Shown: positions 43,315 to 64,000 of the stretch, piece by piece
Numbering within the stretch: position 1 is the stretch's first letter
Layout of the letters: every line of letters begins with the position of its first letter
Origin: Tubulanus polymorphus
Taxonomy: Eukaryota; Animalia; Nemertea
DNA: 64,000 nt
Direction: 5' to 3'
Assembly: GCF_964204645.1 (NCBI RefSeq)
Contig: NC_134033.1
Location: forward strand, 14,764,655-14,828,654
Program-made: the position numbers and the translations under genes
The notes under the pieces: generated by a model
Database searches by the model: none
The model's input: the letters and a program-made list of their open reading frames with translations, nothing else
What the model was told of the DNA's origin: nothing

Positions 43315-44335
43315 AAGCATGTAATATAATCACTAATGGTAACAATTATTATCATTCATCCCTATCAATAGTATATTGAAAAAAGTTATCGAATGTTTGA
43401 ACCACACAAAAACAGAAAATATTTCGACAGAAAAGATTTTTAGGTTTACAGAAAGCAAAGATCTTTATGAAATCAGTAAAAGATCCCCAAAATGTACGCT
43501 ATTCTCAAACTTATATCGCAAATCTTAAAACGGAATCGAATCATTTGATTTAAGAAAGCGAATATCTTTTTGTAATTATCCAACCATCCCCAATACAATA
43601 TTCTCAAACGTATTTCTCAAATTCAGTTAAATTAATGAGTGTAGCTGATATATGTAACGTTTGTTAAACGTCAAAATCTTTTTCCAATATTTCGAAAACC
43701 AGACTTTAATTTAGCAGACCAAACATAATGGGAATTTGTTTCCAAGCGTTTTTCGAATAATGTGTCATTGCCGCTATTATATTTTTGCATTACTAAAAAC
43801 AGCACTACCTTGTCCGATGTTTTCATTATGAAGTTTGATGAACTCTGCTTGAACAACGCAGAGCTTTGGGGTACGCGAAAGTATTCGATTTATGCTCGGA
43901 GGCAAATTTCTAGCTAAGTGAACATTTTTCCCACCTTACCACGCATTAAAGGCATTCAATTCGATCCGCTGGTACATTACAAAAACATCACCGGGCAAGC
44001 GAAAATATACCGCGCATTCATGCATATATGTTCTTGTTATTTCAAGTAATGAACGAAATTATGGGCGTCTAAAGCAAACAGCGTCGCATTTAAAATCTCA
44101 TTTATTTGCGAAGTCGTGGCTAAAAGACAAACTGTTCATTCAAATTCACAATTATCAGAGTTTATGAATTAAATCATGCGTAGAAATACGTATTGCCAGC
44201 GTTTCCCACATAATAATATAGGCATCGGCGAATTTCTGAGTGACGCTTTTCGTTTGCAAAAATGCCCTGCCAGAAAGTTTCTGAGTTTAGTTGGTTTGAT
44301 ACCACTTGGAAGGGATGAGTCGGTCGCGGGACATC

Positions 44336-47300
44336 ATGAAACGTATCGGCGGCTTTTCTTGCATGCTTGTGTTTCTTATGTGCTTAACATTGGCGGTAGG
44401 TTAAATATTCTATGAATCTATGCTTTCATCGGACAAATTTTTTGTTCATAAGACTCATTCGATCGAGTTGACCATACGACGATAGACCATTTTAATGAAG
44501 GGGAGACAAAATCATAGACAATCATTCTGAATAATTTCTAATACAGTTTTAATAGCCATCGCCAGGTGGTTTCATTTATTTGGCCGTTATGCGAGGTTCT
44601 ATATGAGAGGATGCTCAGGGATGAGAGATTGCAACTCACCATCGCATTGGAATTTTACCGTCCAACCAGAAGACTTGGGTCGCCCTCCGTGTGACGCTAA
44701 ATGTATATGTTATGAAACTTCGTTATTTTAACGAAAATATTTTAGATTTTTCTTTTGTTTTCTTCAATGGATGATATCGAAAATCGTCATTATTCTTCAA
44801 TGCGTATCTTTTCATTGCAATTAACAGGACGCCGAACACGCTCGTCGGAAAAGGGCAACGCCGGATGTTCAGGTCACCAGTCACAGACGAATCACTTGGA
44901 GTGTTAGCAATGGTAAATACTCCGGTATGCAAATCCTCACCGTCCTTTGCGGATCGAGAATGGGGGGGGGGGTCTCATAAAAATTAAGATGATCGTGTTG
45001 TATAGAATGTTAACGCCTTTTATAATATACTGATTCAAGTTATGGTATCTTCTATTTCTTAATACAGAACATTTCGCCGGCTCCATCGCACGAGCCTTAA
45101 GACAATTTCCGGCGTGCATTTCTTTCGAAAAGCACCCTAGACCTACAGCAAACCTTAACTACATCTTCGAAAAATCGTAAGTACTTTTTCTCACATGAAG
45201 ATGAAACGTATATCAGCAATGTCCACGGCTGCACATTTTGTCGGTGGCTAAACATGAAAATATACATATATTTCATTCGGATTTTTGATACAGAACAGCT
45301 ATGCTCGGTGAGATTAAAACGATATGAATAATAATGATTCTTTAACAAAACGTAGGATTTCTGTTTAGGCGTGGTGATTTCACTGTGTACACCAAAGGCG
45401 TCGGACTCAAAAAAATTAATTCTGATATTTACCAGCAGGTTGTCTTCATCAAAAGTAGGCATGATTTAAAATATGTAAGTTCAACATCCTTTTAAAATCT
45501 GTTCTAAGATGATTTTGATAATGGATCACGATGCACCGGCTTTTGAAGCTTTAAGGCAAGGGGCATATGTAAAAGTACATCACCGAATGGAGTAAAAATG
45601 CTTTTTTTAACTACAAATCTAATTTGCATCATCTACATTGAAGTAAAAAGTTGCTAGAAAGCATTATATACAGGTATAATGTATTAAAGCATGGACGTAT
45701 AAACTTTCTAGTTTATACGTCCATGATTAAAGTATACAGACCTATGTAAGTTTGTGTATATTTTCATGTTTCATCTGTGCCCTAGTTACTTGAGAACAAT
45801 ATAAAATTGGTGACGCAACAAACTCTACGAGCCCTCGGATTCTATTACGAACACCAGCGACCGGACTCGAACAGATACGTGAAATATAACTTCTCAATGA
45901 GAAAACCACCATATTATGATATGGACACACGCGTGGCTTATGATGTGTCTTCAATTATGCATATTGATGAGATGGTAGGTGCAACTATGGACGTATAAAC
46001 TAGACTAGTTTATACGTCCATGGTGCAACGTGGTTGTGTCACGTGAAGTCGACCAGGCCGATCAAAAGGCAGTAATGCATTCATGTTCTTCAGAGATACA
46101 GCAATGCGCACCTGCGCATGGGAATTAAATATAATTATGTTGGAGGCCTCTGAATCAGCTTCGTAGATTCACAGTTAAAAAGATTCTTGAACGAGTTCAG
46201 TGGGCGTTTCTCCAACTCAAATGTTTAGCTGTAGTTCGTTGGTCATATTTACAATAAACCTGACACTTAAACCTTTCTGTCCTATAATCCGAATTGTTTT
46301 CGTATGACTTGTGTCAGTGGTCAGTCACCAATCACTGTAATCTATCCTCGAATACCCGAAGAAAGATTTCCAGACGCGTTTCCTTCATCACTCACGTACC
46401 GATCGTATTTCAAAATTTCAGTCATACGTAAACGAAGAAGGTGTGGTGAAAAAGCAGAACCGACCAATTATGCAACTACGTCCAACACTGTTGTTCAATA
46501 ACAGGCGACGTCACTACGGTTACATAGGATTTCGGCAACCGGGCGACAGTCTTCTAAGCTTCCGCGACAACAGAACGGTGACCAATAAGCTGTGTCGAAG
46601 GATGGACAATTCGATCGCAGGTATTTATGGAATATTGGCTTAATTCGTATATTTTTCAAATATTCGGTTTACACGTTTCATTAGCTTGGTGAATCGTCCG
46701 CAGTTGTTCCCAGTCGAACCGGTGAGTTTTACTTTAGTCCTTTGATGATAAAGCAGCAATCAATATTAGTTACCTAGGGACTTGGGTTCGACCTTTGGTG
46801 GATTAACTATTCGAACAGCTTCATACATATTCACACCCGAACTACGGCTAGGCCTTACTATCATTCGTACTTTTTAATGATGATAACGTTTTTTCTTCGT
46901 AATATAATTCCTTTGTGATAACATTCAATAATTCAACTACTTATTAACCACTTCGTTGACATTTGTGACGTATATTCACAAAAAAAATAGTCAAAAATAA
47001 TTACCTTCTCTCGCTCATCTCACCATACATGACGTATGTTTACGTAAATGAAGATACATTTCAATTCCAGTGGTCCATTCCTCTTTCGTCCAAATTGCTA
47101 TATGTATTAGATTTAGATTTTGTGCTGAGCTGTAGAAAATGAAAATTTCATTCATGTATTTGTACGTTCATTTGAAGGAACGACACCAGTCACTGCGCAA
47201 TGCCCATCACCGATTGAACCGTGTGCAAACGGAGGCTATGTTGACAAAAGCGTAAACGGGAATTTATGTCGATGCGTCTGTCCTCCGAGATTCGAGGGAA

Positions 47301-49925
47301 TGCGATGCGAAGAGTATCATCCTGGTACGACTTTGCCGATGGAATGCATTATTTTCTATCACGAATCAGCGTCGAAGAAACTCTTTTGAGCAATGGGATA
47401 CCGGCAATGCTAATGTGATCAGTGACAATTCCACCAGGTGTCGCTACTGGCACTGGGTTACCGCGCATCGATTCCTTTTACATTTCGATAAAATTCGAAA
47501 AAGCCTTTCTGATTCTGTGAAATCAATATCATACTCTGAGTGATAAAGTGAATCTTATATCTATTCAATGAATGGTTTGATGATTTTCGGATTTGAAGCT
47601 TAAAAATCAAGTCATCGAAAATGAACTGATTTTCACAATAAATGACCCAGTGCTTTTGTTAGCGCATCTAGTGAGTGCGGGTATCCCATTGCTTTCCATG
47701 CGATCAGCTCATTTGTGTTTCTCTGCACTATTTTCAGGTGAATGCGGTGGAGTTATTTCAGTAACCAATGAGATTGTTGCACACACTTCACGTGGTTATC
47801 CCTATGGTTGGAAGAGATACGAACGGTGTTATCACATCCTTCGCGTAAGTCGAGAGAAAATGTAAAACACGATTAAAGACCTACTTGAGTAGCGTGTTGT
47901 CCTATTGCATCAATTTATTGTAAAGCATTTATTTGACTTCAGCTAAGGCCAAGGGTTGGATGGTAATTTTTCTTGTACTCGTTTTCTAGGCACCAGCTGG
48001 TAGGCGGGTGTTGTTCCGTGTCGTAGACTTACAGTGCACCCAAGCGGAGTTGTACCTGCTCATTTTCGGGACCGATGTCAGTCTTCGCAAGTAAGTCTAT
48101 AAGTATAGGATTCCGCTGGCATAAACAGACTTGGGGTTGTCATTAAGCTCGAAATTATGGAATACTCAAGTTATTCGGAAAAAGATAGATGTAAGATCTG
48201 TATCCAATTGAACAGTTTCCATCTATGTTTAACGTATTTGACTGTGATAATTGATTGGATTCTTAACAGATCTAGTCAGGTGAACAACTGCTCAAATACA
48301 AAATGCCATTTTGAAAGTGTCATCTGCAAATGCCGTAGGGATGGAGATAATTGATAAAGAACAATATAATGATTCGAAGGCTAATGTTTTTGGCAAAACG
48401 AAGTCACAAATAAAATCATCTAGACGGATGAGAAAGTCTTTAAGATCTGAGAAAGATCAGAACTCGCCATTGAAGTACGGACGAGGAACTACAATCATTT
48501 TGTTTCTAAACTTCAGTATTACTTGTGACGACAATTTGATCGAAGAATTACTGGGCGTTTGGTTCCTTTCTGACGGGTCTTACATGGAAGTGAACTACGC
48601 GACGAAAAACTCCAGCGGGCGCGGTTTTAAGTTGGAATACACCGAGGCCTGTCGAACTAACACATCACACAACAACAACAAGACGTCGATGTTTGAAACA
48701 ATTGATTCCGAAGAGGAATCCCCGTGGGGTGAGTGGTTATACATGTTTTCGAGCGGCACTGTATACATAACAGCAAAACAGCAAACACAGAAATTGACAA
48801 TGTATAGGCTAAACAAAAATGATACCTTGTTTCTCCGCAGCGGCCGGGTAATTTTTGTAAAATATGATAAAATTTATAAACAGTTCATTTCTATAGCGGC
48901 CGGGTCTGTTATGGTAAAATTGATCACGATTTAAAAAAAAGTAATGTATAGGGTAGATAGGCGGCCGGCCGGGTCAACATGTAAGCTCAGTAGAGCGGAG
49001 AAACAAGGTATCAATTTTTTTTAGTCATATTTGTAGTTTTTTCAGTTTCAAGGAAGTTGTCCTTCCTAAAGCCCGACGCACGCGATACATTGGCAAACAC
49101 GGAAGCAGGAGGCAGACATATGTATCTTACTGCGTCGGTGCATTTAGGAAAAACGAGACGAAACAATTCTTCAAACATGTTTGATCCTGTGTGTGTCTGT
49201 TTATCTCTTGTTACCATGTCGTGTGCGTTGGGCTTAAAAGAATGTTTTTGGTTAATCTGTTGAAGCTTTCTTGAGGCAGTAGATATCGTTTTTGAAATGG
49301 GAAATCTAAATCCTCAGTTCTGAGTACATCAAATAACGATCGAGCTAGACGTCTAGGTATATTTGTCTTTTCTGATTAAAATAATGATTTTTATTTCACA
49401 GTTTCGTGTAAGGATTTGAATAGTGAAACAGTCACAACGCCCGCTACTACCGATGCGCGTCCCAAATGTCGATTCTGCGATTCAAGGTCGGATAAATATT
49501 GTCTAGTAACGCAAACCAAGGATATGGATGAAATTCAATGTGAAGACCATGAAATGTGTGGTGTACGTATTATATATAGATATACGAAGTATTAATTTGT
49601 AACTTTGACGTCACGGAGTCCTTTGATGAAACATACGTGGTTTTATTTTTAGATCGAGGCAGTGGTTTCCCCTTGCGGAGACGTACGGCAGATGAAACGA
49701 GGCTGCTATTCGACGAACCTTTGCCAGCAATCTCACTGCAAAATGGACGCCGACGGTGCCCATATCTGCGTACAGTGCTGCCACCATTCGACCGATTGTA
49801 AAACGCTAGGCATAACCGATTTGAAATTTGATGTCGTAAACATCCACAGGAATTCCGCAAAGCTTCTGAATGCGTGTTACACGGCGAATGCATTATTGCT
49901 GATGGTTTATCTATCAGTAAACTGA
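44336..49925 (+). CDS. Inactive astacin-like + EGF + CUB + Ly6/uPAR-like protein with signal peptide and probable GPI signal, ~590 aa
   Basis: Phase-consistent exons 44336-44395, 44828-44924 (or -44912), 45068-45176, 45369-45474, 45786-45974, 46422-46620, 46704-46721 (tentative micro-exon), 47178-47324, 47738-47844, 47990-48090, 48517-48728, 49402-49562, 49653-49925. Motifs: RRKRA; CISF; LRALGFYYEHQRPD; YDVSSIMH; LSFRD; CANGGY..CRCVCPPRFEGMRCE; CGG..SRGYP..C..APAGRRV..SGRGFKLEY; CRFC..KRGC..CVQCC..DC; hydrophobic tail. Confidence 0.82.
45690..45725. mobile_element. 36-bp palindromic mini-element with 7-bp TSD
   Basis: attaaag|catggacgtataaactttctagtttatacgtccatg|attaaag. Confidence 0.85.
45986..46022. 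mobile_element. 37-bp palindromic mini-element with 7-bp TSD
   Basis: gtgcaac|tatggacgtataaactagactagtttatacgtccatg|gtgcaac. Confidence 0.85.
47389..47693. mobile_element. Intronic MITE-like element
   Basis: TIR agcaatgggatacc / ggtatcccattgct; inner inverted pair gcactgggt / acccagtgc. Confidence 0.6.
48807..49026. mobile_element. ~220-bp MITE, copy 1
   Basis: Near-identical to 52031-52251; TIR core gataccttgtttctccgc / gcggagaaacaaggtatc. Confidence 0.85.
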
Positions 49926-50454
49926 GTGTACATTTTATCTCTAGCGATCTGCAGCCTGGAACAGCACCATCCCTCCAGACATGCCTAATGTCTGGTAATT
50001 GTCAATTAAAAACTCCTTAGTTGAAGTATTGAGCACACATGAAGTGCGGACGATCAGTTTTATTTTCAACTGCGCTGATTTATCCATTTATGTCTAAGGT
50101 AAAGATCAAATATCGGGCGAATCGTTGTCTGAGGGGATGATTCTAAGCTGCAGATTGAGACCTACCTACTTAAACTGTCCAAGGAAAATGAGGACAATGG
50201 TAAAACTATTTATTTAGCAAGTGCCCAGCTGTTTGTAATTTTATTATGTGATATTATAGTTCTACGTAGTTATAATTATCGTATTTTCACAGTTAAAATA
50301 TGAAGGATCCATTCCGCAGCTGTGTTGAGGTAAAAAATTGAACAAAAATGTTACTCAGTTTTTGAAGCAAACTAATTTCAAACTCCTAGCCCAAATCTCA
50401 CTCACAACCGCGGAATCTGGTCCAGATGTATGGGATAGTAGGCTACAATACATT

Positions 50455-50661
50455 TCACATACATGGGGGATTCTGGTCACAACTTTTCGGGTCATTGCAA
50501 CATTCTTGAAATTGAACGGAACATTGTTTCTCGCAGGCGACACAAAACGGAGTTAAATTGGTGTTCGCGCATTCATCACCAGCCGACGGCGTCGGAGCGA
50601 AGATCGCTATGCTCAGCAATGTCGCAACTACAAGAAAACCACTCATGAATTTCGGCGTCAT
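50455..50661 (-). CDS. Secreted 8-Cys peptide precursor, divergent paralog (68 aa)
   Basis: Signal peptide + DECANTNLTPFCVACEKQCSVQFQECCNDPKSCDQNPPCM; same Cys spacing as the 60046/63777 copies; ATG directly after acceptor tttttgtag; candidate upstream donor gtaagg near 51589. Confidence 0.88.
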   Translation of the reverse strand: MTPKFMSGFLVVATLLSIAIFAPTPSAGDECANTNLTPFCVACEKQCSVQFQECCNDPKSCDQNPPCM

Positions 50662-50985
50662 CTACAAAAATATATGATAACCATTCATGAAATGAGTGAC
50701 AGCGTTTTACAAATCATCAATTGACTGAGCCCGACTCGTGGTTCGTAGTTTTTCGTTTCCCCTAGCCAAAGAACTCTGCCACCACCTGAATTCGAACCCA
50801 TGAACCCTACTGAAAAAATGATTGTGGAATCATTTATAGAAGCAATATCCATGGTGGTTATATTTTTTTATACAAAACATGATTTTCATCTCGACAACCA
50901 TGAACTTTTGCGGATTTGGACGCAGTTTTAGTATTTTCTAATTGAATCTATTATGAATAAAGAAAAGTCTTGATTTTATTTTTTC

Positions 50986-51567
50986 ATGGGGCCGGTTCCA
51001 CAGTTAACTCTGAGTTAGAATCTGTTCATTTTCAATGAGTTTATTCTGAGTCAAATCTTACGTAAAGGCCCCCGCACACGAGCCGAAAACTGCGCTGCGC
51101 CATTTTCGTACGCAATTTTCGGCTCGTATGCGGGGGCCTCAACTCACAACACTGTGGATTTGGATCCTGGCTCGGCGCGCATCAGATTCGCTCGAAGAAA
51201 CGATGGTAGATTAGAACAAGAAATCTCATGCGAGACCATTTCATCGTTCATATTTGTAACCTGGGGCCGGTTGCATAGTCATGGCTTAGACTTAAGACCA
51301 GTCTAAGACCAACTTAGTTCTATATAGCCAATCTAACAACTTAAGACTGGTCTTAAGATTTAAGACCACTTTTGGACTTAAGTCACGACTATGCAACTGA
51401 CCCCAGGGCTGGGTTTCATAGATGTGGAAGAAAATAGTCCCTGGGAACATTTTGAAATTTGTCAGTTATAACCATGGTTTCTCATTATTACTATGGTGGT
51501 TGTCACCCAAATTGAGGATTTACCCCTAGGGATTACTTTGATACCAGTCTATGAAACCGGGCCCAGG
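50986..51567. mobile_element. Cluster of four MITEs (one nested) in the presumed 5'UTR intron of the peptide gene
   Basis: 50987-51168 element interrupted by hairpin aggcccccgcacacgagccgaaaa..ttttcggctcgtatgcgggggcct (51066-51139); then 51263-51404 and 51406-51565, both with second copies in cyclin B3 introns. Confidence 0.8.
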
Positions 51568-52030
51568 AAAATTGAATTTCATCACCTTACCTTTACTTGA
51601 TTGAATACAGTAAATGTTGAAACACAAAGAACTATTAAATCCACCTAAAATCTCACCATTCTTTATACTGTTCGTTCCTTTTACCCTGATACTTGTAAAA
51701 CACTTCATTTCTTAGGTCTAGGAGATTAAACATATTTTATTGACGAATTTATTATTTGTTTTCTTTCATATTCTTCGATATTCTAAGTCGAACGCTTAAA
51801 TGAGTTTGTACTTCATCGAGTTCATGCTTTGATCTACTCGATATAGATTGATATTCGCAAAGGAAAACCGATATCAGTGCGAACATTTTCTCTCAAGTGC
51901 TACGTGAGAGTCGATATGAAAGTATCCATTGTAATAATCCTGCTACTGAATTGATTGCTAAAGAAATGGAAAACCATGTGTTTCAGATCGACGAATAAAG
52001 TTTATACGAAGAAATCGATTCGAACGTTTA

Positions 52031-52251
52031 GGCTAAACAAAAATGATACCTTGTTTCTCCGCAGCGGCCGGGTCATTTTTGTAAAATATGATAAAAATTT
52101 ATAAACAGTTCATTTCTATAGCGGCCGGGTCTGTTATGGTGAAATTGATCACGATTTTTAAAAAAGTAATGTATAGGGTAGATAGGCGGCCGGCCGGGTC
52201 AAAATTTAAGCTCAACAGAGCGGAGAAACAAGGTATCAATTTTTTTTGGCC
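52031..52251. mobile_element. ~220-bp PIF/Harbinger-like MITE, copy 2
   Basis: TTA|GGCTAAACAAAAATGATACC...GGTATCAATTTTTTTTGGCC|TTA: TIRs with 3-bp TTA duplication. Confidence 0.88.
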
Positions 52252-52998
52252 TTATGGTTTTGCGAGAAAGAACGACTCGCATGAGAACGTTTGGAATCAC
52301 GTTCTCTAATGTTTATCGCTAAAACGGAAATGCATTCACAAATCGTAACTCGCCCAATCGATGTACCATCCTGAAAGTATCAATCCGCGGCCTGATGGAA
52401 CCACCCTTAAGATGACCAGCAGCTGAAATAACCCCCTTCTGAAATTCGCTGATGTAAAGTGGCGAGGATATCAACACTAAATTTGCTTTTATTCGAGGTT
52501 TGTTTTAGTCTTTCATTACATGAAAAGCCTGCAACCAGACCGGGAATAATCGCCTATGACGTTTTATTTCCTATATGTCGATGAAATTCCGCCCTGAAAC
52601 TGAAACGATTCATGTATAGAGTTCCGTTTGCAGTCTTAACGAGACAATTATCACAATTGGGTTTTTGGTAGTTTTTAAAGAGGCCGATGTCAAGAGGCAA
52701 CCTACTACCAGTCGCCACTGCGCGCAAATGGAAATCATTCTGAACTGCCGGGCTTTAAAAAGATGAAATCATCCCAGTCATGTGATACATATCGTACATA
52801 AATATCGTCAATTTAATTCAATAATCGAGTAGTATTTTTCCAATCTTTAGTTGAAATACTGTTCAAAGATATTTAAATGATTATGTAATCTACGTAGTTT
52901 ATTGATTCGAAGAAAAAAGGACACCGTATATATCCGAATCTTCATGAATATAAAACCCAGCAGTCACGTAATCTAGAAATCTAGACTATCGACATCAG

Positions 52999-54138
52999 AT
53001 GGATGATTACACAAATTCAGCAAACCGGCATAACAAAACCAACTTAAAGAATGCGTTCGCAGCAGCCTCCGACATCTTTCATAATATCACTTATAAAGAC
53101 GACGCATTGGTATCGTTGTGTCAAAGGATACAAGCCCGTCCTGCAACACGAAAAAACAAATACAGCGTTTTAATGTACTTGGTTTGGTATCTACCAGCGT
53201 CTCTATTGGGTATAATATTCAACGCATTCACGCTGTTGGTTCTAAAACAATTCAAATCCGATAGTTATTTTCTCATCAAAATTCTCGCTTTAAACGATCT
53301 GTTGTTTATGATCGCTACATTCGTTCTTTATCCGCTGAGAACTGTGTACGTGTACGCCGTATTGGGAGATATTCTGTTTCGTACAAATAATTGGAATTTA
53401 GGCTGGATTTTCATCTCGGTCGCCTTGCCGTTTTTCTACATGTTTCAGATGACACGTAACTGGTGCACTGTACTGCTAAGTCTCGAGCGGTTAATCGTCG
53501 TATTGTTTCCGATAAAATCTCGAATATTTCCCCTGAAGTCCATATCGCTATACGCGATGCTTTTCATATCGCTACTCAGCTTTTGCGGACATTTCGTTTT
53601 GTTTCTGCCCGAATATCCGCTTGGCTTTCTGAACTGCCCCGACTATTGGCCATATGTAACTATACGCAAGAAGTACCGATTCAAATATGGGATTATACAA
53701 TATAAATGGCGTTACGAGATTTCCGAACGTGATTTGTTTCTCTATCTTACCGTCATGTTTCCGATTTGCTTTTTAGTTTTCGTCAATTCCATTCTTATTT
53801 CGCTGACATTTTTCCGACACGTCTTTCGACATTCGGAGCTCGGCGTAGTAAACGACAAATCGGCGAGAAAAGAAATGAAAGTTTTGAGGATGGTTTTATC
53901 CGTAGTTCTGTTGTTCATCATCTGCGAAAGTATCGGTTTCGTCGATCGTCTGAAATACTTTGTCGCAATTCCTGCTCTTAGAAATTCAGGCATAAGGCTG
54001 ATAGCCTTAGGACTTTCTATCGTCGATTCTTCTGTAAACTTTTTCGTGTATTGCGTAACGAATGCAAGGTTCAGAAAGTCGGTTTTTGGTACATTCGCCT
54101 CGCCGCGTCAGGAACCTGAGCAAAAGAGGAAACCCTAA
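52999..54138 (+). CDS. Intronless rhodopsin-class orphan GPCR 'A' (FMRFamide-receptor-like), 379 aa
   Basis: GIIFN, LALND, TRNW..LSLERL, FIICES, DSSVNFFVY..NARFR; shares TRNW, ICE..DR and DSxxNF with the 42340 receptor. Confidence 0.92.
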   Translation: MDDYTNSANRHNKTNLKNAFAAASDIFHNITYKDDALVSLCQRIQARPATRKNKYSVLMYLVWYLPASLLGIIFNAFTLLVLKQFKSDSYFLIKILALNDLLFMIATFVLYPLRTVYVYAVLGDILFRTNNWNLGWIFISVALPFFYMFQMTRNWCTVLLSLERLIVVLFPIKSRIFPLKSISLYAMLFISLLSFCGHFVLFLPEYPLGFLNCPDYWPYVTIRKKYRFKYGIIQYKWRYEISERDLFLYLTVMFPICFLVFVNSILISLTFFRHVFRHSELGVVNDKSARKEMKVLRMVLSVVLLFIICESIGFVDRLKYFVAIPALRNSGIRLIALGLSIVDSSVNFFVYCVTNARFRKSVFGTFASPRQEPEQKRKP

Positions 54139-55454
54139 AATGAGCACAGCGCGCACGTAGTGACGACTTCGAAATATGACGCCCTTCATAGAAAACACAC
54201 TTCGTCTCTTTGTACGTGTCATGAACCACAACTGAAATAAGATCTACTCCCTAAATCAAACCAATATCAAAATATAATTCAAGGATATTGATATTTACCA
54301 AAGAAGTCAATTAAACTAGCTTTTGAGTGTTGGTTCTTGACCATCTCAACTTCAAAATTGTACCTGGTGGGAACTTAAGGTTAACGTTGAAAAGACCAAG
54401 ATTATCATTTTTAGAACAATGGGGTGTAGGAAGCTCAACGTTTTCGTGTGGGTTATCAAAATGTAGATGAAGAAGTTGATTATCAATATGATGTTATTAA
54501 GTTTAAACAAAATGAAGTTTCTTTGAAGGCAAAATAACTGTTAGTAAACAAGGCAAAATGCGCATAGATAAAGTCTGGTATTTGAGAATATATTCCCTAG
54601 ACCCACCATTAGATTACCAGTTTGAATAATTCGATCAGACGATCAATTTGGGAATAATGTTGAACAACGCAAAAATATGCTCTAATCGGCCACATGTTCT
54701 GTTAATTGATTATTGGTTTTAATTCAGAGTTCTCATAACATGTATATACACAACCGAAGACTCTTCAGATACAATTTATCCCTTACAATATTTTCTTTTG
54801 AATACCGTGTACCGATAACTGCGTACTCAAAGACAGATTGTGTAGCTCTCGAAAACCTGATCGTTGAGGATAAGAGCGCGTAGGAACAATAGCGTCATCA
54901 ATAGAAAACATCGTTGACGAAGAAAGCGTAGTACTTGTTTCAAGAGGGTAAGCGGGATATGATTATTATAGATACGAACGATTCACCAGGGATCAGTGGA
55001 AAGTTCCACAAGCTCCACTCTGCAGATAGACAATTAGTCCAGCAAAACAACCAGTTAAATAGAAGTAAGTTTTCTATTTATTATTTTTTTTATTAAAGCA
55101 TCTCCTGGGCATGTGTGTGTAAACATTAAAATGCACCCAGTAATATTCAACATAGAAAAATAATTCTTTTTTTTCATTACTAGTAAAGCTGCTTTCGAGG
55201 TTTATTCCGAGTTTGCTCGAAGTAAAATTCGAAAATGATATTTCAGTTGAAAAAGAAGTTTGCATATTTGCTAACAACGATGTCATCATTTTCCGATATG
55301 ATGGCAGCCTTGTTTCTCGATTCAGTCCAGACATAGAAATCCTAGGCTACCGATGCGTTGCATCGATCTGTAACTTGGAAATATTATTAATATAATACGA
55401 GTCGTTTTATGCATCGATATTTTCATTCATTTGTTCGCTTGTCCATCTTTGTAG

Positions 55455-55642
55455 ATGACGCCGAAATTCGCCAGTGCCTTCCTTGTAGTCGCGTTACTCG
55501 TTAGCGTGACCATTCTTGTTCCGACGCCAGTGACTTCTGATTGACCGGCTATTGCGTCAACTGCGAGAAACAATGTTCGGTTCAATTCGAGGAGTGTTGC
55601 AATGACCCGTCTAGTTGCATTCAGGTTCCTCCTTGTCTGTGA
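55455..55642 (+). pseudogene. Frameshifted copy of the 8-Cys peptide gene
   Basis: 26 nt (ggccgggcagcaatgtgccaatcgaa) of the 60046 copy replaced by ttct (net -22), removing Cys1 and giving VTSD* right after the signal peptide; rest nearly identical. Confidence 0.9.
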
Positions 55643-56338
55643 AATGCTATCGATATCGTGTATTCGCTGAATTCGATGAATTATCGATATTCTAAGCATA
55701 AACGTATGAATTAGTTCTACGTATAATAAAGAATTCACAAAAATAAAATGTCCTTCGTCGATCTTACGTATGTTGTTATGATCAGGGAGGTGGGTTCACT
55801 CCCACCTCTCTGTTATGATTGACCTTTCATCCGTATCAACATACATATATATTATGTATTTTTCGTATCAAGCATTACTGGAATTCTATGGTCCATCATC
55901 CAGGAGCGTCGTTCATCCTTGGGGTTCGAGGATTGTCAGTACGATTGAATATCAATAGTGAAATAAAATGATTACTCGCGAAAATGAAATAAAACAGAAT
56001 TGAAATGGAATTTTGCTCAGGGATATTCAATATAACGTGTAAACTACATTGTGGAAATAGCTTTTGATGTGACTTCTGTATTCCGAAAGTGGAATTCATT
56101 CAACTAGTATTGCCTGACTATCTCGGAGGCCTTTCTTTGCTTTTCCAACAATGGCTAGGCATACGTACACGGAGGAATCCTATGGAAATATACGAGTTGG
56201 CCTATATGTCTCTTGTTCCCACTTCCTTGAAATTACCGAGCTACGCCATGGCGCTTGATGCTGTGTAAGCGTTCTTGAAATCACAGAGCAGTGGAACAGA
56301 TGCAAGAATAGTTCGCACAGTTACCGGTACCTGTAATC

Positions 56339-57565
56339 ATGGATAACTTGACGAACTTCACTACTACAACTTTTCGGGTTTATACTGTTGCAGAAAGACC
56401 TCGAAATATCTTCTATCCATTCGCCAGATTTGTGATCCGTATGGATTACTACTATATAACGCCAATCATTCACTTGTTAGTCTATCCGCTGGGCTGCGCG
56501 TTTAACTGGTTTACTATCATTTTGTTGCTTAAGTGTCGTAGATTTCAATCGGTTCGTTACACATTTCCTTATCTAATGACTCTCGCTGTTTCAGATCAAC
56601 TCGTCGTATTGTTTGGTTTGTCCAGGTTTTCAGATTGGATGCGACACCTACTGAAAACGATTGGACTCGTTCCGAGGGACTGCGGTGGTCAAATGATTTA
56701 TCTTCATCAACGAAACAAATGTCCTATACTTTACAATTTTTGGTACTATTTTTCCTATCTTCCACAAAGATGGATCCCTATCTGTTTACTAAAATCACTA
56801 TTCTACAACCAGTCAATATCTATATCTAACTACATAGTTGTTGTAATTGCTATTGAAAGATTCGTTTCTATTCGTTTCCCTTTCTTTCACATGAGACATT
56901 TCACAGTCACCAAACGTAGAATAGCTGTATGTGTTGTGTTAATGGTTTCATATATAATTAATTGGCATGACACTATTAGATACAATGTCGTTATTGTCGT
57001 CAATAGAGGAGGATATAACGAAACATTAGGTTTCATTATGTGCAGCACCACCCAATGGATGCGGATTACCCGTTCTCAGGAAGGAATGATTAAAACTGTT
57101 CAATCATTCTTTCAGAACATACTGCCATCATTCTTGATCGCCATAGTATCAGTTCTAACTGCTGTATCACGTGCTAGGAAGTCGAGAGTCCTGATCGAAA
57201 CGAGAACAGATCGTAATAAATCTTCAGCCAGTAAAACTCTTGTTGTTGTAGTAATTATGTATATGTTACTGGTGTTACCAAATTCGATGTGTACCTTAAT
57301 GGGCAACTTCAACGAATTCATTATGGATACTCTCTGGATCAATCGGGGCATACCGCTTTACTCGGTTCTATCTCGCACCAGCTATTACGTTCTCAGAAAT
57401 TTCGCGTACGATTTAGGTCGATTATTTAAAATACTTCGTGAATCCGTATATTGCATTAATTTCTTTATATATTTGGGGACACTGGGCGTTTTCAGGAGAC
57501 AATTCACCACATTTTTCACCGGTAATTTTTGTTTAAAAAAATCGAAATCAAAACCGAATGAATGA
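56339..57565 (+). CDS. Intronless rhodopsin-class orphan GPCR 'B1', 408 aa
   Basis: PLGCAFN, LAVSD, IAIERFVSIRFP, MLLVLP, CINFFIYL..FRRQF; long ECL1 and ECL3. Confidence 0.92.
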   Translation: MDNLTNFTTTTFRVYTVAERPRNIFYPFARFVIRMDYYYITPIIHLLVYPLGCAFNWFTIILLLKCRRFQSVRYTFPYLMTLAVSDQLVVLFGLSRFSDWMRHLLKTIGLVPRDCGGQMIYLHQRNKCPILYNFWYYFSYLPQRWIPICLLKSLFYNQSISISNYIVVVIAIERFVSIRFPFFHMRHFTVTKRRIAVCVVLMVSYIINWHDTIRYNVVIVVNRGGYNETLGFIMCSTTQWMRITRSQEGMIKTVQSFFQNILPSFLIAIVSVLTAVSRARKSRVLIETRTDRNKSSASKTLVVVVIMYMLLVLPNSMCTLMGNFNEFIMDTLWINRGIPLYSVLSRTSYYVLRNFAYDLGRLFKILRESVYCINFFIYLGTLGVFRRQFTTFFTGNFCLKKSKSKPNE

Positions 57566-58086
57566 AGACGCGTTGAAGTGGAATACCCACAATTACGAAG
57601 AAATGATAAAGAGAGTAGTGACGTTTCAAATAAATTCTAGGGAAAGATTTTCAAAACAAAGAGAGAAGTTACGTTTCAATTGAATTCTAGGGAAAGATTT
57701 TCAAAACTAAGAGAGAAGTGACGTTTTTGACTTCATCAGTCATGGAGTTGGTCTATTTCTTGCCAATGGGTATGGTATCACATATATCTGTTTGACCAAT
57801 TCTATGGCTGTCAATCACCCACGTAAGTCTGGCTTTGCTTGACATTTGACGTCCATTATGACGTATGTGTGTCGTAGAGCTTACACGTAACGTGCATAGC
57901 AATATAGAGAATGCGTGCCTTGTATTAGAATCTATCGCACTACTTTGATCGAATGATCCTTGAATTCTTTTGACAAGTTTATACGCGACTAATTCTTTAA
58001 GCAGATTGTATCGGCACATTACTGCGTGACGTTTTAACCTTGTGTCTTATTGACTGAGCAATGCTTTTGGTTAAAACAAAGTTTTT

Positions 58087-58468
58087 TACAGTGCCGGTAC
58101 CGATATCCCGGTCAATCATATTCAGAGTGCCGATAAAACAAAATGGCGGCTTTTTCAACGGTAGAAAATTAGGGTTTAGTGTCTAGAGGGTGAGAAAAGG
58201 GTCCAGGGGTTAGGGCTAGGATTGGGATAAGGTTTAGGTTAAGGATTAGAGTTAGTCTTTGCATTATACTAGGATAAGGCTAAAACTATTTGAAAATGCT
58301 GGGATTCGTCAGGTGCCCCGATGGCTCAAGAGGATAGAACTCTGCGCTAGTATAACATATGCTTGCGTGTTCGAGTCCCAAATTTCGTGCTTTTGTTACT
58401 TAGATTTTCTAAGTACAGCGTTGCCGGCACTGTATAAATGATGATCGGAGTACTTTACCAGCACTGTA
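58087..58468. mobile_element. TA-flanked MITE with degenerate TTAGGG-like internal tract
   Basis: TA|CAGTGCCGGTA...TACCAGCACTG|TA; internal ttagggtttag..gggttagggctaggattggg..tttaggttaaggattagagttag. Confidence 0.7.
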
Positions 58469-58514
58469 GGCACGGCGTTTTCTAAAATGGCGGTTCTGCG
58501 CGCGTCATCAACTT

Positions 58515-58728
58515 CGAAAGTATCGGTTTCGTCGATTGTCTGAAATACTTTGTCGCAATTCCTGCTCTTAGAAATTCAGGCATAAGGCTGATAGCCTTAG
58601 GACTTTCTATCGTCGATTCTTCTGTAAACTTTTTCGTGTATTGCGTAACGAATGCAAGGTTCAGAAAGTCAGTTTTTGGTACATTCGCCTCGCCGCGTCA
58701 GGAACCTGAGAAAAAGAAGAAACCCTAA
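58515..58728 (+). pseudogene. 3' fragment (end of TM6 to stop) of GPCR-A carried by the duplication
   Basis: Near-identical to 53925-54138, with no upstream coding part. Confidence 0.92.
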
Positions 58729-60045
58729 AATGAGCACAGCGCGCACGTAGTGACGGTTTCGAAATATGACGCCCTTCATAGAAAACACACTTCGTCTTTT
58801 TGTACGTGTCGTGAACCACAACTGAAATAAGATCTACTCCCTAACGAGCTAACCAATTTCAAAATATAATTCAAGGATATTGATATTTACCAAAGAAGTC
58901 AACTAAACTAGCTTTTGAATGTTGGTTCTTGACCATCTCAACTTCAAAATTGTACCTGGTGGGAACTTAAGGTTAACGTTGAAAAGACCAAGATTATCAT
59001 TTTTAGAACAATGGGGTGTAGGAAGCTCAACGTTTTCGTGTGGGTTATCAAAATGTAGATGAAGAAGTAGATTATCAATATGATGTTATTAAGTTTAAAC
59101 AAAATGAAGTTTCTGTGAAGGCAAATTACTGTTAGCAAACAAGGCAAAATGCGCATAGATAAAGTCTGGTATTTGAGAATATATTCCCTAGACCGACCAT
59201 TAGATTGCCAGAGTTTGAATAATTCGATCAAACGATCAATTTGGGAATAATGTTGAACAACGCCAAAATATGCCCTAATCGGGCACATGTTCTGTTAATT
59301 GATTATTGGTTTTAATTCAAAGTTCTCATTACATGTATATACACAACCGAAGACTCTTCAGATACAATTTATCCCTTACAATATTTTCTTTTGAATACCG
59401 TGCACCGATAACTGCGTACTCAAAGACAGATTGTGTAGCTCTCGAAAACCTGATCGTTGAGGATAAGAGCGCGTAGGAACAATAGCGTCATCAATAGAAA
59501 ACATCGTTGACGAAGGAAACGAAGTGCTTGTTTCAAGAGAGTAAGCGGGATATGATTATTATAAATACGAACGATTCAGGGATCAGTGGAAAAGAAGTTC
59601 CACAAGCTCCACTCTACAGATAGACAATTAGTCCAGCAAAACAACCAGTTAAATAGAAGTAAGTTTTCTATTTATTATTTTTTTTATTAACGCATCTCCT
59701 TGGCATGTGTGTGTAAACATTAAAATGCACCCAGTAATATCCAACATAGAAAAATTCTTTTTTTCATTACTAGTAAAGCTGCTTTCGAGGTTTATTCCGA
59801 GTTTGCCCGAAGTAAAATTCGAAAATTGATATTTCAGTTGAAAAAGAAGTTTGCATATTTGCTAACAACGATGTCATCATTTTCCGATATGATGGCAGCC
59901 TTGTTTCTCGATTCAGTCGAGACATAGAAATTCTAGGCCGTCAATGCGTTGCGTCGATCTGTAACTTGGAAATATTATTGATATAATACAAGTCGTTTTA
60001 TGCATCGATATATTTATTCCTTTGTTCGCTTGTCCATCTTTGTAG

Positions 60046-60255
60046 ATGACGCCGAAATTCGCCAGTGCCTTCCTTGTAGTCGCGTTACTGGTTAGCGTGA
60101 CCATTCTTGTTCCGACGCCAGTGACGGCCGGGCAGCAATGTGCCAATCGAAGATTGACCGGCTATTGCGTCAACTGCGAGAAACAATGTTCGGTTCAATT
60201 CGAGGAGTGTTGCAATGACCCGTCTAGTTGCATTCAGGTTCCTCCTTGTCTGTGA
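60046..60255 (+). CDS. Secreted 8-Cys peptide precursor (69 aa)
   Basis: Signal MTPKFASAFLVVALLVSVTILVPTPVTA + GQQCANRRLTGYCVNCEKQCSVQFEECCNDPSSCIQVPPCL; TATAAATA at 59560, donor gtaagt at 59659, acceptor tttgtag|ATG, AATAAA at ~60338. Confidence 0.9.
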   Translation: MTPKFASAFLVVALLVSVTILVPTPVTAGQQCANRRLTGYCVNCEKQCSVQFEECCNDPSSCIQVPPCL

Positions 60256-60917
60256 AATGCTATCGATATCGTGTATTCGCTGAATTCGATGAATTATCGA
60301 TATTCTAAGCATAAATGTATGAATCAGTTCTACGTATAATAAAGAATTTATAAAAACAAAATGTCCTTTTTGTGGATCTTATACGTATGTTGTTATGATT
60401 GAGCTTGCATCCGGCGTATCAAGAATGACTCGATTTCTGCGTATATCGTCCAGATGGGTCTATTATCCTATAGGTTTGATAGTCTTTATGCTTTTCTGAT
60501 TAAATTTACTTTCGAGGATTCTCTGGACGTTTGAATATCAATAGTGAAATAAAATGATTACTCGCGAAAATGAAATAAAACAGAATTGAAATGGAATTTT
60601 GCTCTGGGATATTCAATATAACGTGTAAACTACGATGTAAAAATAGCTTTTGATGTGACTTCTGTATTCCAAAAGTGGAATTCGTTCATCTAGTTGTGCC
60701 TGATTATGTCAGAGGTCCCCTTGCTTTCCTTTCAACAATGTCTAGGGGCACACGTACACAGTGGAATCCTATGAATATACGCATACATGTCTCTTGTTCC
60801 CACTCCCTAAAAAATGATCACACCAAGCTATGCCATGGCGCTGATGTTGTGTAAGCGTTTTTTAAATTACAGAGCAGTAACAGGGAGCGGAGGCAAGAAT
60901 AGTTCGCGCAGTCACCA

Positions 60918-62153
60918 ATGCCTGTAATCATGGATAATTTGACGAACTTCGCTACTACAACTACTCGAGTTTATACCGTTGCAGAAAGACCTCGAAATAT
61001 CTTCTATCCATTCGCCAGCTTTGCGTTTCGTATGGAATACTATGTAGCGCGGATCATTCACTTGTTAGTCTATCCGCTGGGCTGCGCGTTTAACTGGTTA
61101 ACTATCATTTTGTTGCTTAAGTGTCGTAGATTTCAATCGGTTCGTTACACATTTCCTTATCTTATGACTCTCGCTGTTTCCGATCAACTCGTCGTATTGT
61201 TTGGTATGTCTTGGTTTCCAGGTTGGATGAGAGGCCTACTCGTCGATATTGGACTCATTCCGAGGGAATGCAGTGGTTTCATGATTCATCTTCAACAACG
61301 AAACCAATGTCCACTACTTTACAATTTTTGGTACTATTTTTCCTATCTTCCACGAAGATGGATCCCTATCTGTTTACTAAAATCACTATTCTACAACCAG
61401 TCAATATCTATATCTAACTACATAGTTGTTGTAATTGCTATTGAAAGATTCGTTTCTATTCGTTTCCCTTTCTTTCACATGAGACATTTCACTGTCACCA
61501 AACGTAGAATAGCTGTATGTGTTGTGTTACTGGTTTCATATATAATTAATTGGTATAACACTATTAGATACAATGTCGTCACTGTCAGCAACTATCGCAG
61601 ATTTAACGAAACATTAGGTTTCATTACGTGCAGTGGACCCCAATGGATGCGGATTACCCGCGCTCAGAGGGGAATGATTGAAACTGTTAAAGTGTTCTTT
61701 CAAAACATACTGCCGTCATTCTTGATCGCCGTAGTATCAGTTCTAACTGCTGTATCACGTGCTAGGAAGTCGAGAGGCCTGATCGAAACGAGAACAGATC
61801 GTCATAAATCTTCAGCCAGTAAAACTCTTCTTGTTGTAGTAATTATGTATATGTTACTGGTTTTACCAAATTCGATGTGCGCTTTAATGGCCAACTTTAA
61901 CGAATTCCTTATAGATACTCTCTGGCTCAATCGGGGTATACCACTTTTCTCGGTTCTATCTAACACCAGCTATTACGTTCTCAGAAATTTCGCGGTGGAT
62001 TTAGGTCGATTCTTTAAAATACTTCGTGAATCCGTATATTGCATCAATTTTTTTATATATTTGGGGACACTGGACGTTTTCAGGAGACAATTCACCACAT
62101 TTTTCACCGGTATTTTTTGTAGAAAAAAAATCGAAACCCAACTGAATGAATGA
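60918..62153 (+). CDS. Intronless rhodopsin-class orphan GPCR 'B2', 407-411 aa
   Basis: Paralog of 56339-57565 with intact ORF; the start equivalent to B1 is ATG 60930. Confidence 0.92.
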   Translation: MPVIMDNLTNFATTTTRVYTVAERPRNIFYPFASFAFRMEYYVARIIHLLVYPLGCAFNWLTIILLLKCRRFQSVRYTFPYLMTLAVSDQLVVLFGMSWFPGWMRGLLVDIGLIPRECSGFMIHLQQRNQCPLLYNFWYYFSYLPRRWIPICLLKSLFYNQSISISNYIVVVIAIERFVSIRFPFFHMRHFTVTKRRIAVCVVLLVSYIINWYNTIRYNVVTVSNYRRFNETLGFITCSGPQWMRITRAQRGMIETVKVFFQNILPSFLIAVVSVLTAVSRARKSRGLIETRTDRHKSSASKTLLVVVIMYMLLVLPNSMCALMANFNEFLIDTLWLNRGIPLFSVLSNTSYYVLRNFAVDLGRFFKILRESVYCINFFIYLGTLDVFRRQFTTFFTGIFCRKKIETQLNE

Positions 62154-62961
62154 AGACGCGTTGAAGTGGAACACCCACAATTACGAAAAAATGATAAAGA
62201 GAGTAGTGACGTTTCAGCTATATTCTACGGAAGATTTTCAAAACTATAAAAGCAGTGAAGTTTCAATTACATTCTAAGAAAAATATTTTAAAAACTAAGA
62301 GAGAAGTGACGTTTTTGACTTAATCCGTCATGGAGTTGGTCTATTACTGGCCAATGGGTATGGTATCATGTATATTATGTTTGACCAATTCTATGGCTGT
62401 CAATCATCCACGCAAGTCTGGCTTTGCCTGACATTTGACGTCCATTATGACGTATGTGAGCTTACACGTAACGTGCTTAGCAATATAGAGAATGTGTGTC
62501 TTATATTAATATTAACATCTATCGGACTACTTTGATCGAATGATATGGAAATTGACCAAACAAGTCAATTAAACTATCTTTTGAATGTTGGTTCTTGACT
62601 ATCTCAACTTGTTAGACATACGAAGATTATCGTTTTTAGAATAGTGGGGTGTAGGAAGCTCAACGTTTTCGTGTGGGTTATCAAAATGTAGATGAAGAAG
62701 TAGATTATCAATATGATGTTATTAAGAATAAACAAAATGAAGTTTCTGTGAAGGCAAAATAACTGTTAGTAAACAAGGCAAAATGTGCAAAGATAAAGTC
62801 TGGTATTTGAGAATATATTCCCTAGACCGACCATTAGATTGCCAGTTTGAATAATTCGATCAGACGATCAATTTGAGAATATTGTTGAACAACGCAAAAA
62901 TATGCCCTAATCGGCCACATGTTCTGTTAACTGATTATTGGTTTTAATTCAAAGTTCTCAT

Positions 62962-63095
<134 letters not shown>

Positions 63096-63776
63096 ACCGA
63101 AGACTCTTCAGATACAATTTATCCGTTACAATATTTTCTTTTGAATACCGTGCACCGATAACTGCATACTCGAAGACGGATTGTGTAGCTCTCGAAAACC
63201 TGATCGTTGAGGATAAGAGCGCGTAGGAACAAGTGTCATCAACAGGACGAAGAAAACGAAGTGCTTGTTTCAAGAGGGTGATATGATTATCATAAATACG
63301 AACGTACACCAGGGATCAGTGGAAAAGAAGTTCCACAAGCTCCACTCTACAGATTGACATTTAGTCCAGCAAAGCAACCAGTTAAATAGAGGTAAGTTTT
63401 CTATTTATTTATTTTTTAATCAAAGCATCTCCTGGGCATGTGTGTGTAAACATTAAAATGCACCCAGTAATATTCAACATGGAAAAACCCTTTTTTTCAT
63501 TACTAGTAAAGCTGCTTCGAGGTTTATTCCGAGTTTGCTCGAAGTAAAATTCGAAAATGATATTTCAGTTGAAAAAGAAGTTTGCATATTTGCTAACAAC
63601 GATGTCATCATTTTCCGATATGATGGCAGCCTTGTTTCTCGATTCAGTCCAGACATAGAAATCCTAGGCCACCAATGCGTTGCGTCGATCTGTAACTTGG
63701 AAATATTATTAATATAATACGAGTCGTTTTATGCATCGATATTTTCATTCATTTGTTCGCTTGTTCATCTTTGTAG

Positions 63777-63986
63777 ATGACGCCGAAATTCGCCAGTGCC
63801 TTCCTTGTAGTCGCGTTACTGGTTAGCGTGACCATTCTTGTTCCGACGCCAGTGACGGCCGGGCAGCAATGTGCCATACGGAGATTGACCGGCTTTTGCG
63901 TCAACTGCGAGAAACAATGTTCGGTTCAATTCGAGGAGTGTTGCAATGACCCGTCTAGTTGCATTCAGGTTCCTCCTTGTCTGTGA
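63777..63986 (+). CDS. Secreted 8-Cys peptide precursor (69 aa), third cassette copy
   Basis: Identical protein to 60046 except N>I and Y>F between Cys1 and Cys2; same 5'UTR intron (donor 63392, acceptor at ATG). Confidence 0.9.
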   Translation: MTPKFASAFLVVALLVSVTILVPTPVTAGQQCAIRRLTGFCVNCEKQCSVQFEECCNDPSSCIQVPPCL

Positions 63987-64000
63987 AATGCTATCGATAT

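Follow-up and report, generated by a model that had tools for sequence, protein, structure and literature searches.

Outer-face divergence and mixed patches in a tandem pair of class A receptor genes from the ribbon worm Tubulanus polymorphus

In a 64,000-nucleotide stretch of the Tubulanus polymorphus genome (contig NC_134033.1; hereafter the window), two neighbouring GPCR genes, B1 and B2, raise the question of whether their divergence reflects positive selection on ligand specificity with conserved G-protein coupling, as a sequence-only reading had proposed, or the evolution of an ordinary duplicate with exchange between copies. Since outer-face change does not exceed the silent rate and mixed versions of the genes occur in other animals of the species, we consider the latter likely and tuning of the two receptors not proven.

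Two receptors in a tandem array

B1 (56339..57565; 408 aa) and B2 (60930..62153; 407 aa) are each a single ORF on the forward strand, on which all features given below lie, and the interval 42340-62153 holds four such single-ORF GPCRs. B2 has an extra in-frame ATG at 60918 (+4 residues) that B1 lacks. Both proteins match Pfam 7tm_1 (E 3.5e-10 and 3.2e-11; 40.2 and 43.6 bits, above the curated cut-off of 30.5). B1 carries N56, D86, C149, ERF at 173-175, C235, P263, P314 and NFFIY at 374-378, anchors that we take to correspond to the class A motifs N1.50, D2.50, C3.25, E/DRY, P5.50, P6.50 and NxxxY, with ERF and NFFIY as variants of E/DRY and NxxxY. A B2 model built with an 18-row alignment (pLDDT 75.5, pTM 0.76; single-sequence folding gave pLDDT 41.9) has seven long helices, an ECL2 hairpin and helix 8. 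Both genes thus encode intact class A (rhodopsin-like) GPCRs.

No homologue of B2 was found among 6562 candidates, and a full-library search with B returned five matches at 26-29% identity, none at E 1e-10; these distant matches argue against B being a conserved orthologue of a true FMRFamide (RFamide) neuropeptide receptor. Atlas feature matches (0.95-0.96) were mostly to Srw/7tm_1 clusters and some prostaglandin-receptor clusters; B gave no Pfam Srw match at E 0.01, and profile matches were also found among comparisons with the FMRFamide-receptor-like/Srw-like group. The TM3-ICL2 core reached read depths of hundreds to thousands, with in-frame homologous loose ends. Because the GPCRs stand in tandem, the TM3-ICL2 depth is high and a close database relative is absent, the pair appears to belong to a lineage-specific FMRFamide-receptor-like (Srw-like) expansion, and B1 and B2 are likely chemoreceptors of the smell or taste type.

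Lophotrochozoan class A expansions are described as candidate chemoreceptors that vary most at the extracellular TM ends and loops, and nemertean ones as very large, two species having about 1,904 and 764 genes of this kind (PMC11886862). Like them, B is a tandem class A system without close relatives elsewhere; unlike them, its ECL1 spans about 40-50 residues rather than the typical 15-20, and it has cysteines in TM3 and ECL2, which the expansions are reported to lack (PMC11886862). The FMRFamide-receptor-like clusters of Lymnaea stagnalis share the same broad annotation and comprise 4-26 tandem genes (PMC11589774), whereas no database protein exceeds 29% identity to B.

The B cassette with its flanks (55925..57957) is homologous to 60511-62544. 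Beside the gene, 56/405 upstream positions (13.8%) and 36/383 downstream positions (9.4%) differ, which corrects the earlier description of much of the flanking DNA as nearly identical, and we rejected near-identical flanks as a neutral baseline. An upstream block, comprising the 3' end of GPCR A and intergenic DNA (53915..55782, homologous to 58505-60399), diverges by about 3.5%, and its stretch 54139-55782 (58/1636, 3.5%) is the only part of the flanking DNA this similar. The non-coding DNA falls into two age classes, far-upstream block versus near flanks (p 1e-13), which suggests that the block is younger or was homogenised more recently than the cassette. A third partial copy of the block (62539..64000), about 5% from the other two, runs off the window.

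Outer-face divergence and its silent background

B1 and B2 differ at 115 of 1224 coding bases, giving 64 amino-acid differences plus one codon indel, in line with the 65 or so counted previously, and 23 purely silent codons. The N-terminus and loops hold 40 of the 64, short of the approximately 50 that had been assigned to the N-terminus and extracellular loops, a figure reached once outer TM halves are counted. With a generous outer-face boundary that includes those halves and was drawn after data inspection, 50/230 outer codons differ versus 6/151 inner ones (p 5e-7), and the claim that divergence lies mainly on the outer face stands. The outer/inner odds ratio of 6.7 exceeds those of two control pairs of the family (1.7 and 2.2; p 0.014 and 0.028), which lean outward too.

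The differences are unevenly spread. The TM2 top and long ECL1 (56624..56773; B2 61212-61361; codons 96-145) contribute 15, alongside two extra cysteines (115, 128) kept in both copies; ECL2 (56972..57088; B2 61560-61676; codons 212-250) contributes 11 in two patches, and 6/36 ECL3 codons differ. The ECL1 and ECL2 motifs quoted earlier are present, but the first sits on an extended TM2 helix in the model. Helix 8 and the intracellular C-terminus (57482..57562; B2 62070-62150) are as divergent (8/27), four of the eight differences stemming from one compensated one-base frameshift. Residues 59-93 and 144-201 are identical in the two proteins, as had been noted for ICL1-TM2 and TM3-ICL2; the accompanying statement of few silent changes fits only TM3-ICL2, TM2 having three (pS about 0.16). 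The segment from TM3 through ICL2 to the start of TM4 (56768..56941; B2 61356-61529; codons 144-201) has one silent change, absent from three other samples, and its core is common to many other paralogs. Many of the changes had been called radical, and we rejected this as evidence: 18/40 have BLOSUM<0 and 12/40 alter charge, where random single steps would give 51% and 28%, so the share of radical changes does not exceed chance.

Constraint on the inner face was borne out (dN/dS 0.33-0.49), whereas the outer face gave no excess of replacements. Extracellular dN/dS was 0.88-1.06 (confidence interval spanning 1; ML 1.00), and extracellular dS was 0.16-0.18 versus 0.07-0.09 in TM+ICL, about twofold (p 0.04-0.06). 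The sequence-only reading had itself said that extracellular dN/dS of at most 1 with equally high dS would point to patchy gene conversion rather than selection, and this is essentially what we observed. In addition, outer pN did not exceed divergence in the flanks beside the gene (p 0.15), inner pS was lower than that divergence (7/128 vs 92/788, p 0.044), and silent changes clustered near replacements (p 0.022). A recent duplication followed by positive selection that fixed two ligand specificities would account for the strong outer/inner skew and, against the 3.5% far-upstream baseline, for an outer dN four to five times as high; outer dS and both near flanks are, however, as high as outer dN, and in other samples neither locus has a fixed set of patches. 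Silent divergence and mosaics have already largely refuted this scenario, which we regard as highly improbable.

Multi-base changes and candidate specificity residues

Site models at first sight favour selection: M2a outperformed M1a for the outer face (p 4e-6), assigning a very high omega to about 9% of sites, and the signal persisted once three block changes were dropped (p 0.001). It rests on whole-codon changes and is lost once multiple hits are modelled (p 0.82), and a two-age null does equally well (LRT p 0.39-0.82 across the multi-hit and two-age nulls). No significant regional or site dN/dS above 1 survived when multi-base mutation and variation in the silent rate were taken into account. 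The three blocks, each of 5-7 adjacent changes, include silent changes, and for one of them a template lies nearby (p 0.023; one of 16 tests). Every one of the four isolated three-base changes falls in codon phase (p 0.012), and extracellular codons changed at all three bases number seven versus 0.5 expected; a near-neutral outer face predicts neither. For runs of at least three adjacent changes, the gene showed no significant excess over the flanks (7/108 vs 3/128, p 0.19), although no such run is left in the near flanks after masking columns next to gaps.

The TM5 top (57080..57106; B2 61668-61694; codons 248-256) carries E248R, K252E, Q255K and S256V, at about 5.35, 5.39, 5.42 and 5.43 when counted from the P263 anchor, three of them charge changes, and these are the best candidates for specificity residues. 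Using a list of generic class A pocket positions, which we assume applies to B1 and B2, 10/35 TM pocket positions were changed versus 8/58 other outer TM positions (p 0.07). Helix-face clustering was significant in 0/5 helices. At codon 256, samples X4 and X1 show a stepwise intermediate (Leu), and codon 116 occurs in three states. Selection for ligand range may have acted on a few residues at the pocket rim (TM5 top, 118, 357), and two sequences cannot tell such selection from multi-base mutation.

These codon-level signals are the natural support for diversifying or balancing selection, under which old ligand-face variants would be kept despite conversion and reshuffled, dS being raised only by linkage as a peak of divergence; a variant has two balanced alleles joined by unequal crossing-over. 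The M2a result, the phased triples, codons 256 and 116, the TM5-top charges and the pocket counts all fit, as do third-state variants in other samples (8/10 replacements) and a far block at roughly allelic divergence with the gene region as the peak. Against this, the multi-hit and two-age nulls fit equally well, the adjacent-change blocks bring silent changes along, 8/10 replacements is not above neutral (p 0.47), no helix shows significant face clustering, and the non-coding flanks match the outer face in divergence. We hold this explanation to be possible but doubtful.

Mixed patches in other samples

We compared B1 and B2 with reads and Logan contigs from three other samples, X1 and X4 among them; each contig collapses variants and gives an averaged depth, X4 is covered by 3-19 reads, and the detailed comparison covers B1 codons 1-277 (40/45 rows). 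For codon 32 (V/A) and the codon-37 deletion, all four combinations are present (B1, B2, an X1 contig and X4 reads). An X1 contig (depth 45.6) has only 2/19 B2 letters over 57012-57140, and X1 has zero B1-type depth over the ECL2 patch directly before that interval. In X4, the B2 letter appears at codon 219 (9/9 reads) and codons 129-130 (13/13), yet sequence over codons 227-267 is B1-type, and 8/9 reads hold A268V and V270A, found in neither window copy. ECL2's two patches thus occur in mixed combinations, and because copies in the three samples are mosaic, many B1/B2 differences are not fixed.

That two alleles of a single locus were wrongly joined in tandem is suggested by the upstream block, which at 3.5% is near allelic level. 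An X1 contig nevertheless runs with no differences across the unit junction, at the duplicated GPCR A 3' fragment that starts the second unit (58505..58730). In X1, each promoter type has single-locus depth (22-23.5) and shared coding parts have about double, and in X4 B depth is about 1.8x that of GPCR A with three TM1 types. On this evidence we rejected such an artefact as extremely improbable. The array comprises two real loci; B1-type, B2-type and third-state patches are mixed within their copies.

Possible signs of gene conversion are the four-gamete pattern, the mosaics, the shared third states and the two age classes, with tract permutation weak at p 0.01-0.33. Between the two window copies, the silent-tract test gave p 0.33 for the largest gap and 0.07 for spacing; minus letters private to the window's B1, it gave 0.05-0.07 and 0.01-0.02. 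A single old duplication with inner purifying selection, relaxed outer loops and chance silent variation, involving neither conversion nor positive selection, would agree with outer dN/dS near 1, the non-significant window test and the outward lean of the control pairs. It is at odds with the two non-coding age classes, the depressed inner dS, the four-gamete pattern and the shared third states, and we judge it quite improbable.

We favour, at a probability of roughly 55%, an old tandem duplicate in which purifying selection acts on the inner face, likely together with homogenising conversion, and the outer face is about neutral on average, with patches likely swapped between the copies. The cassette would have been duplicated when the neutral divergence of about 10-15% began to accumulate; later conversion would have flattened the upstream block and the TM3-TM4 and TM1-TM2 stretches, and would also have moved outer-face patches between copies, so that the window's B1/B2 contrast would be one haplotype's snapshot of a polymorphic two-locus cluster. 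Published patterns count for this history (PMC11886862, PMC3924837, PMC2880985); besides the codon-phased triples, the weak silent-tract test, an odds ratio above the control pairs and the possibility that B2-type letters at single B1 sites are simply ancestral count against it.

Parallels are partial. Like human red/green opsins, the pair shows local divergence peaks in a tandem GPCR pair with other parts homogenised, but the opsin differences are fixed and functionally proven, whereas B patches segregate and near flanks are diverged too (PMC3924837). CCR2/CCR5 and CCR1/CCR3 are likewise neighbouring class A paralogs, in which conversion is described mainly in TM regions and occasionally in extracellular loops, with selected sites outside; they have known ligands and multi-species omega>1 tests, versus omega about 1 from sequence alone for B1/B2 (PMC2880985, PMC8877049). 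The term 'gene conversion' is absent from the main text of the lophotrochozoan expansion study (PMC11886862). In primate CEACAM, conversion similarly shifts extracellular sequence among paralogs to yield polymorphic variants, although these are immunoglobulin-fold adhesion receptors with tested pathogen binding and offer B only an analogy (bioRxiv 10.1101/2021.08.24.457561).

A hypervariable GPCR locus resembling MHC or CEACAM, with balanced old ligand-face modules (about 15% diverged) dealt between two loci by conversion, strikes us as rather unlikely. Its modules would be the N-terminus/TM1, TM2-ECL1, the two ECL2 patches and the TM5 top, and each worm would have a private assortment of at most four chimeric receptors, all sharing an unvarying signalling core and serving cues such as mate, self or pathogen. 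The B pair is a further example of the documented outer-face variability of expanded lophotrochozoan GPCRs, and a clear case in which such variability plus a significant site test is not proof of positive selection. Patch shuffling is the part worth following: if confirmed and selectively maintained, it would offer two intron-free genes as a compact setting in which to study how conversion and selection build the receptor repertoires of individual animals in a marine invertebrate, and natural chimeras for mapping ligand specificity.

Two further observations concern the sample reads. Variants at 56822-56895, likely from other paralogs, were set aside. A 57534 T>A change would create a stop if alone, and the reads that carry it have six other differences.

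Tandem layout and family of the receptor pair

Both copies of the tandem pair, GPCR B1 (56339-57565, forward strand) and GPCR B2 (60930-62153, forward strand), are intact single-ORF class A receptors with Pfam 7tm_1 matches above cut-off. The tandem unit that carries B spans ~4.6 kb and begins within the 3' end of the neighbouring upstream gene, GPCR A (52999-54138, forward strand), and at 62539 a further, incomplete unit begins, the third in the series. GPCR A and a fourth receptor gene (42340-43314, forward strand) are likewise single-ORF class A GPCRs with 22-23% identity to B, and the fourth shares 67% identity with a 'FMRFamide receptor-like' protein of Tubulanus polymorphus, which points to a ribbon worm close to Tubulanus as the likely source animal. 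The B1/B2 duplication is real, since in X1, a sequencing run from another sample, one contig crosses the unit junction with 0 differences, and the B1-type and B2-type promoters each show a depth of 22-23.5 compared to 43-55 in the shared coding stretches.

No close relative of B was found among 6562 database candidates, and a search of the full protein library returned five matches at 26-29% identity. Feature matches in the protein atlas fell mostly in Srw/7tm_1 clusters from molluscs, nematodes, nemerteans and rotifers. Read depth over the TM3-ICL2 core of B reached hundreds to thousands, with loose ends carrying in-frame homologous ICL2-TM4 sequence, and B is therefore likely a member of a subfamily with many paralogs. 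Within this core (56852-56909) and at the ICL3/TM6 junction (~61790), contig depth is very high, with other paralogs as the source; single contigs of 31-43 bases, at ~20-40x the depth of one locus, suggest that the family has many near-identical members. Judged from the analogous expansions described in PMC11886862, B would likely serve in external chemical sensing.

Divergence of the outer face

B1 and B2 differ by 64 amino acids and one codon indel, and a further 23 codons differ only silently. The N-terminus and loops hold 40 of the replacements (in 166 codons), rather than the roughly 50 counted in the sequence-only reading; the remainder fall in the TMs (14), the ICLs (2) and the C-terminus (8, four of them from one compensated frameshift). 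The claimed observation is thus partly confirmed, and the outward skew itself is real: with the outer TM halves included, changed codons number 50 of 230 on the outside and 6 of 151 on the inside (p 5e-7, with the boundary set after the data had been seen). An outward lean is also present in two control pairs drawn from this broad family, with odds ratios of 1.7 and 2.2 versus 6.7 in B1/B2, where the skew is stronger (p 0.014 and 0.028). The flanks, much of which had been described as close to identical, are so only in the far upstream block (3.5% divergence), whereas the near flanks diverge by 13.8% immediately upstream and 9.4% downstream.

The skew had been ascribed to positive selection on ligand specificity. 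Extracellular dN (0.159-0.167) is similar to dS (0.157-0.180), giving dN/dS of 0.88, 0.99 and 1.06 at kappa 1, 2 and 3, with every bootstrap interval including 1, and our own implementation of a codon likelihood model returned 1.00 for the outside. In the TMs and ICLs, dN is 0.036-0.038 and dS 0.074-0.086, a contrast in dS with which the four-fold sites agree (8/51 changed outside versus 6/90). Compared with the near flanks, replacement divergence outside is not higher (p 0.15) and silent divergence inside is lower (p 0.044). Silent changes sit clustered near replacements (p 0.022), which are no more radical than random single steps, contrary to the initial impression. Taken together, these results do not show positive selection on the extracellular face, and they essentially reproduce the pattern set in advance as refuting that reading and pointing to patchy gene conversion.

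Near the B1 C-terminus, X1 and X4, a further run from other samples, carry a T>A change at 57534. It is a third state, located in a stretch of poly-A next to the compensated frameshift, where slippage may be especially frequent. Shortly after each stop codon lies a 50-51 base tandem repeat (57608-57726 and 62197-62314), where many read joints suggest a dispersed or length-variable element.

Site models and candidate pocket residues

On the B1/B2 pair, M2a was favoured over M1a (p 4e-6), with ~9% of sites at an omega near 50. This support stems from codons in which two or three bases differ; it was gone once multi-base changes were permitted (p 0.82). A null model that assigns two ages to the sites fitted within one log unit of M2a. 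The signal is an artefact of the multi-base mutation type described in bioRxiv 10.1101/165969. Three blocks of 5-7 adjacent changes, silent changes included, occupy codons 105-107, 222-224 and 236-238, and one has a matching template ~50 bases upstream (p 0.023, one of 16 tests). A real site signal at a few codons is possible, as the isolated three-base changes at codons 118, 248, 256 and 357 are all in codon phase (4/4, p 0.012), a stepwise intermediate at codon 256 is present in two other samples, and the site test still gives p 0.001 with the blocks dropped, but this becomes p 0.39 when multi-hits are also permitted.

Changes at the top of TM5 comprise E248R, K252E, Q255K and S256V. Of 35 generic TM pocket positions, 10 are changed, compared to 8 of 58 outer TM positions beyond that list (p 0.07), with TM7 numbering uncertain by up to 3 residues. 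The TM3 pocket face is invariant between the copies, and helix-face clustering of changes was significant in none of five helices. AlphaFold2 modelling on an alignment of 18 rows (pLDDT 75.5, pTM 0.76) predicts seven long helices, of which TM2 and TM6 reach outward, together with helix 8 and a hairpin in ECL2. ECL1 (56624-56773) is unusually long and is also the most variable stretch; its extra cysteines, 115 and 128, are conserved and could form a loop disulfide.

Probable exchange between the copies and other elements of the window

Four runs, representing at most three samples from two studies, were compared over B1 codons 1-277, excluding reads <91% similar to B1. Among the 40 of 45 rows listed, reads and long contigs of every covering sample carry the B2 state at codons 58, 79, 189, 202 and 210, so that the window's B1 allele is likely alone in having its letters there. 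All covering X4 reads carry the B2 letter at 18 of 23 listed diagnostic sites, which differ between the copies by construction. X4 is B2-type at codons 219 (9/9 reads) and 129-130 (13/13) but B1-type over codons 227-267, and an X1 contig at depth 45.6 has 2 of 19 B2 letters over 57012-57140, preceded by a B2-type ECL2 patch. All four combinations of codon 32 with the codon-37 deletion were seen. The rows listed hold at least 10 third-state variants, of which 8 are replacements and 2 are silent, a ratio that does not exceed neutral (p 0.47). Two of these variants each occur in 8/9 X4 reads and thus likely sit on both loci. Such mixed patches, combinations and third states are likely marks of exchange between the copies, read from contigs that blend variants, at low depth in X4, and with lone B2-type letters possibly ancestral. 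Silent-tract permutation of the window pair alone was weak (p 0.07-0.33; 0.01-0.07 with private letters removed).

Conversion between B1 and B2 is likely. An older duplication of the cassette, the B gene with its near flanks, at ~10-15% neutral divergence would have produced two receptors, their signalling core being kept by purifying selection. Conversion likely homogenised inner stretches as well as the upstream block, and it likely also shifts outer patches; the outer face is neutral on average, possibly masking a few selected pocket-rim residues. That B1/B2 hold a balanced, shuffled ligand-face repertoire seems unlikely to us. For tandem GPCR expansions of lophotrochozoans, variability of the outer face has been described in PMC11886862, the main text of which lacks the phrase 'gene conversion', and in PMC11589774. 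Conversion with extracellular divergence is documented for pairs of chemokine receptors (PMC2880985, PMC8877049) and opsin GPCRs (PMC3924837). In the literature searched, which covered main texts outside subscription journals, we found no report of a lophotrochozoan receptor pair whose alleles are shuffled by conversion.

Elsewhere in the window, two Gly/Met/His-rich repetitive ORFs lie on the forward strand at 26219-26893 and 27782-29641, the latter containing a 31-residue unit repeated ~19.6 times. A third repeat region, rich in Gly, lies near 23704-23864; these likely represent secreted proteins with a structural role in tube, mucus or cuticle. On the reverse strand (15900-17585), an exon of a Dispatched/Patched-related transporter forms a long ORF that encodes Patched and sterol-sensing domains. 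Simple repeats comprise a 136-base tandem array (5999-6707, 5.2 copies), a 36-base array (38232-39048, 22.9 copies) and an AT microsatellite (62965-63091).
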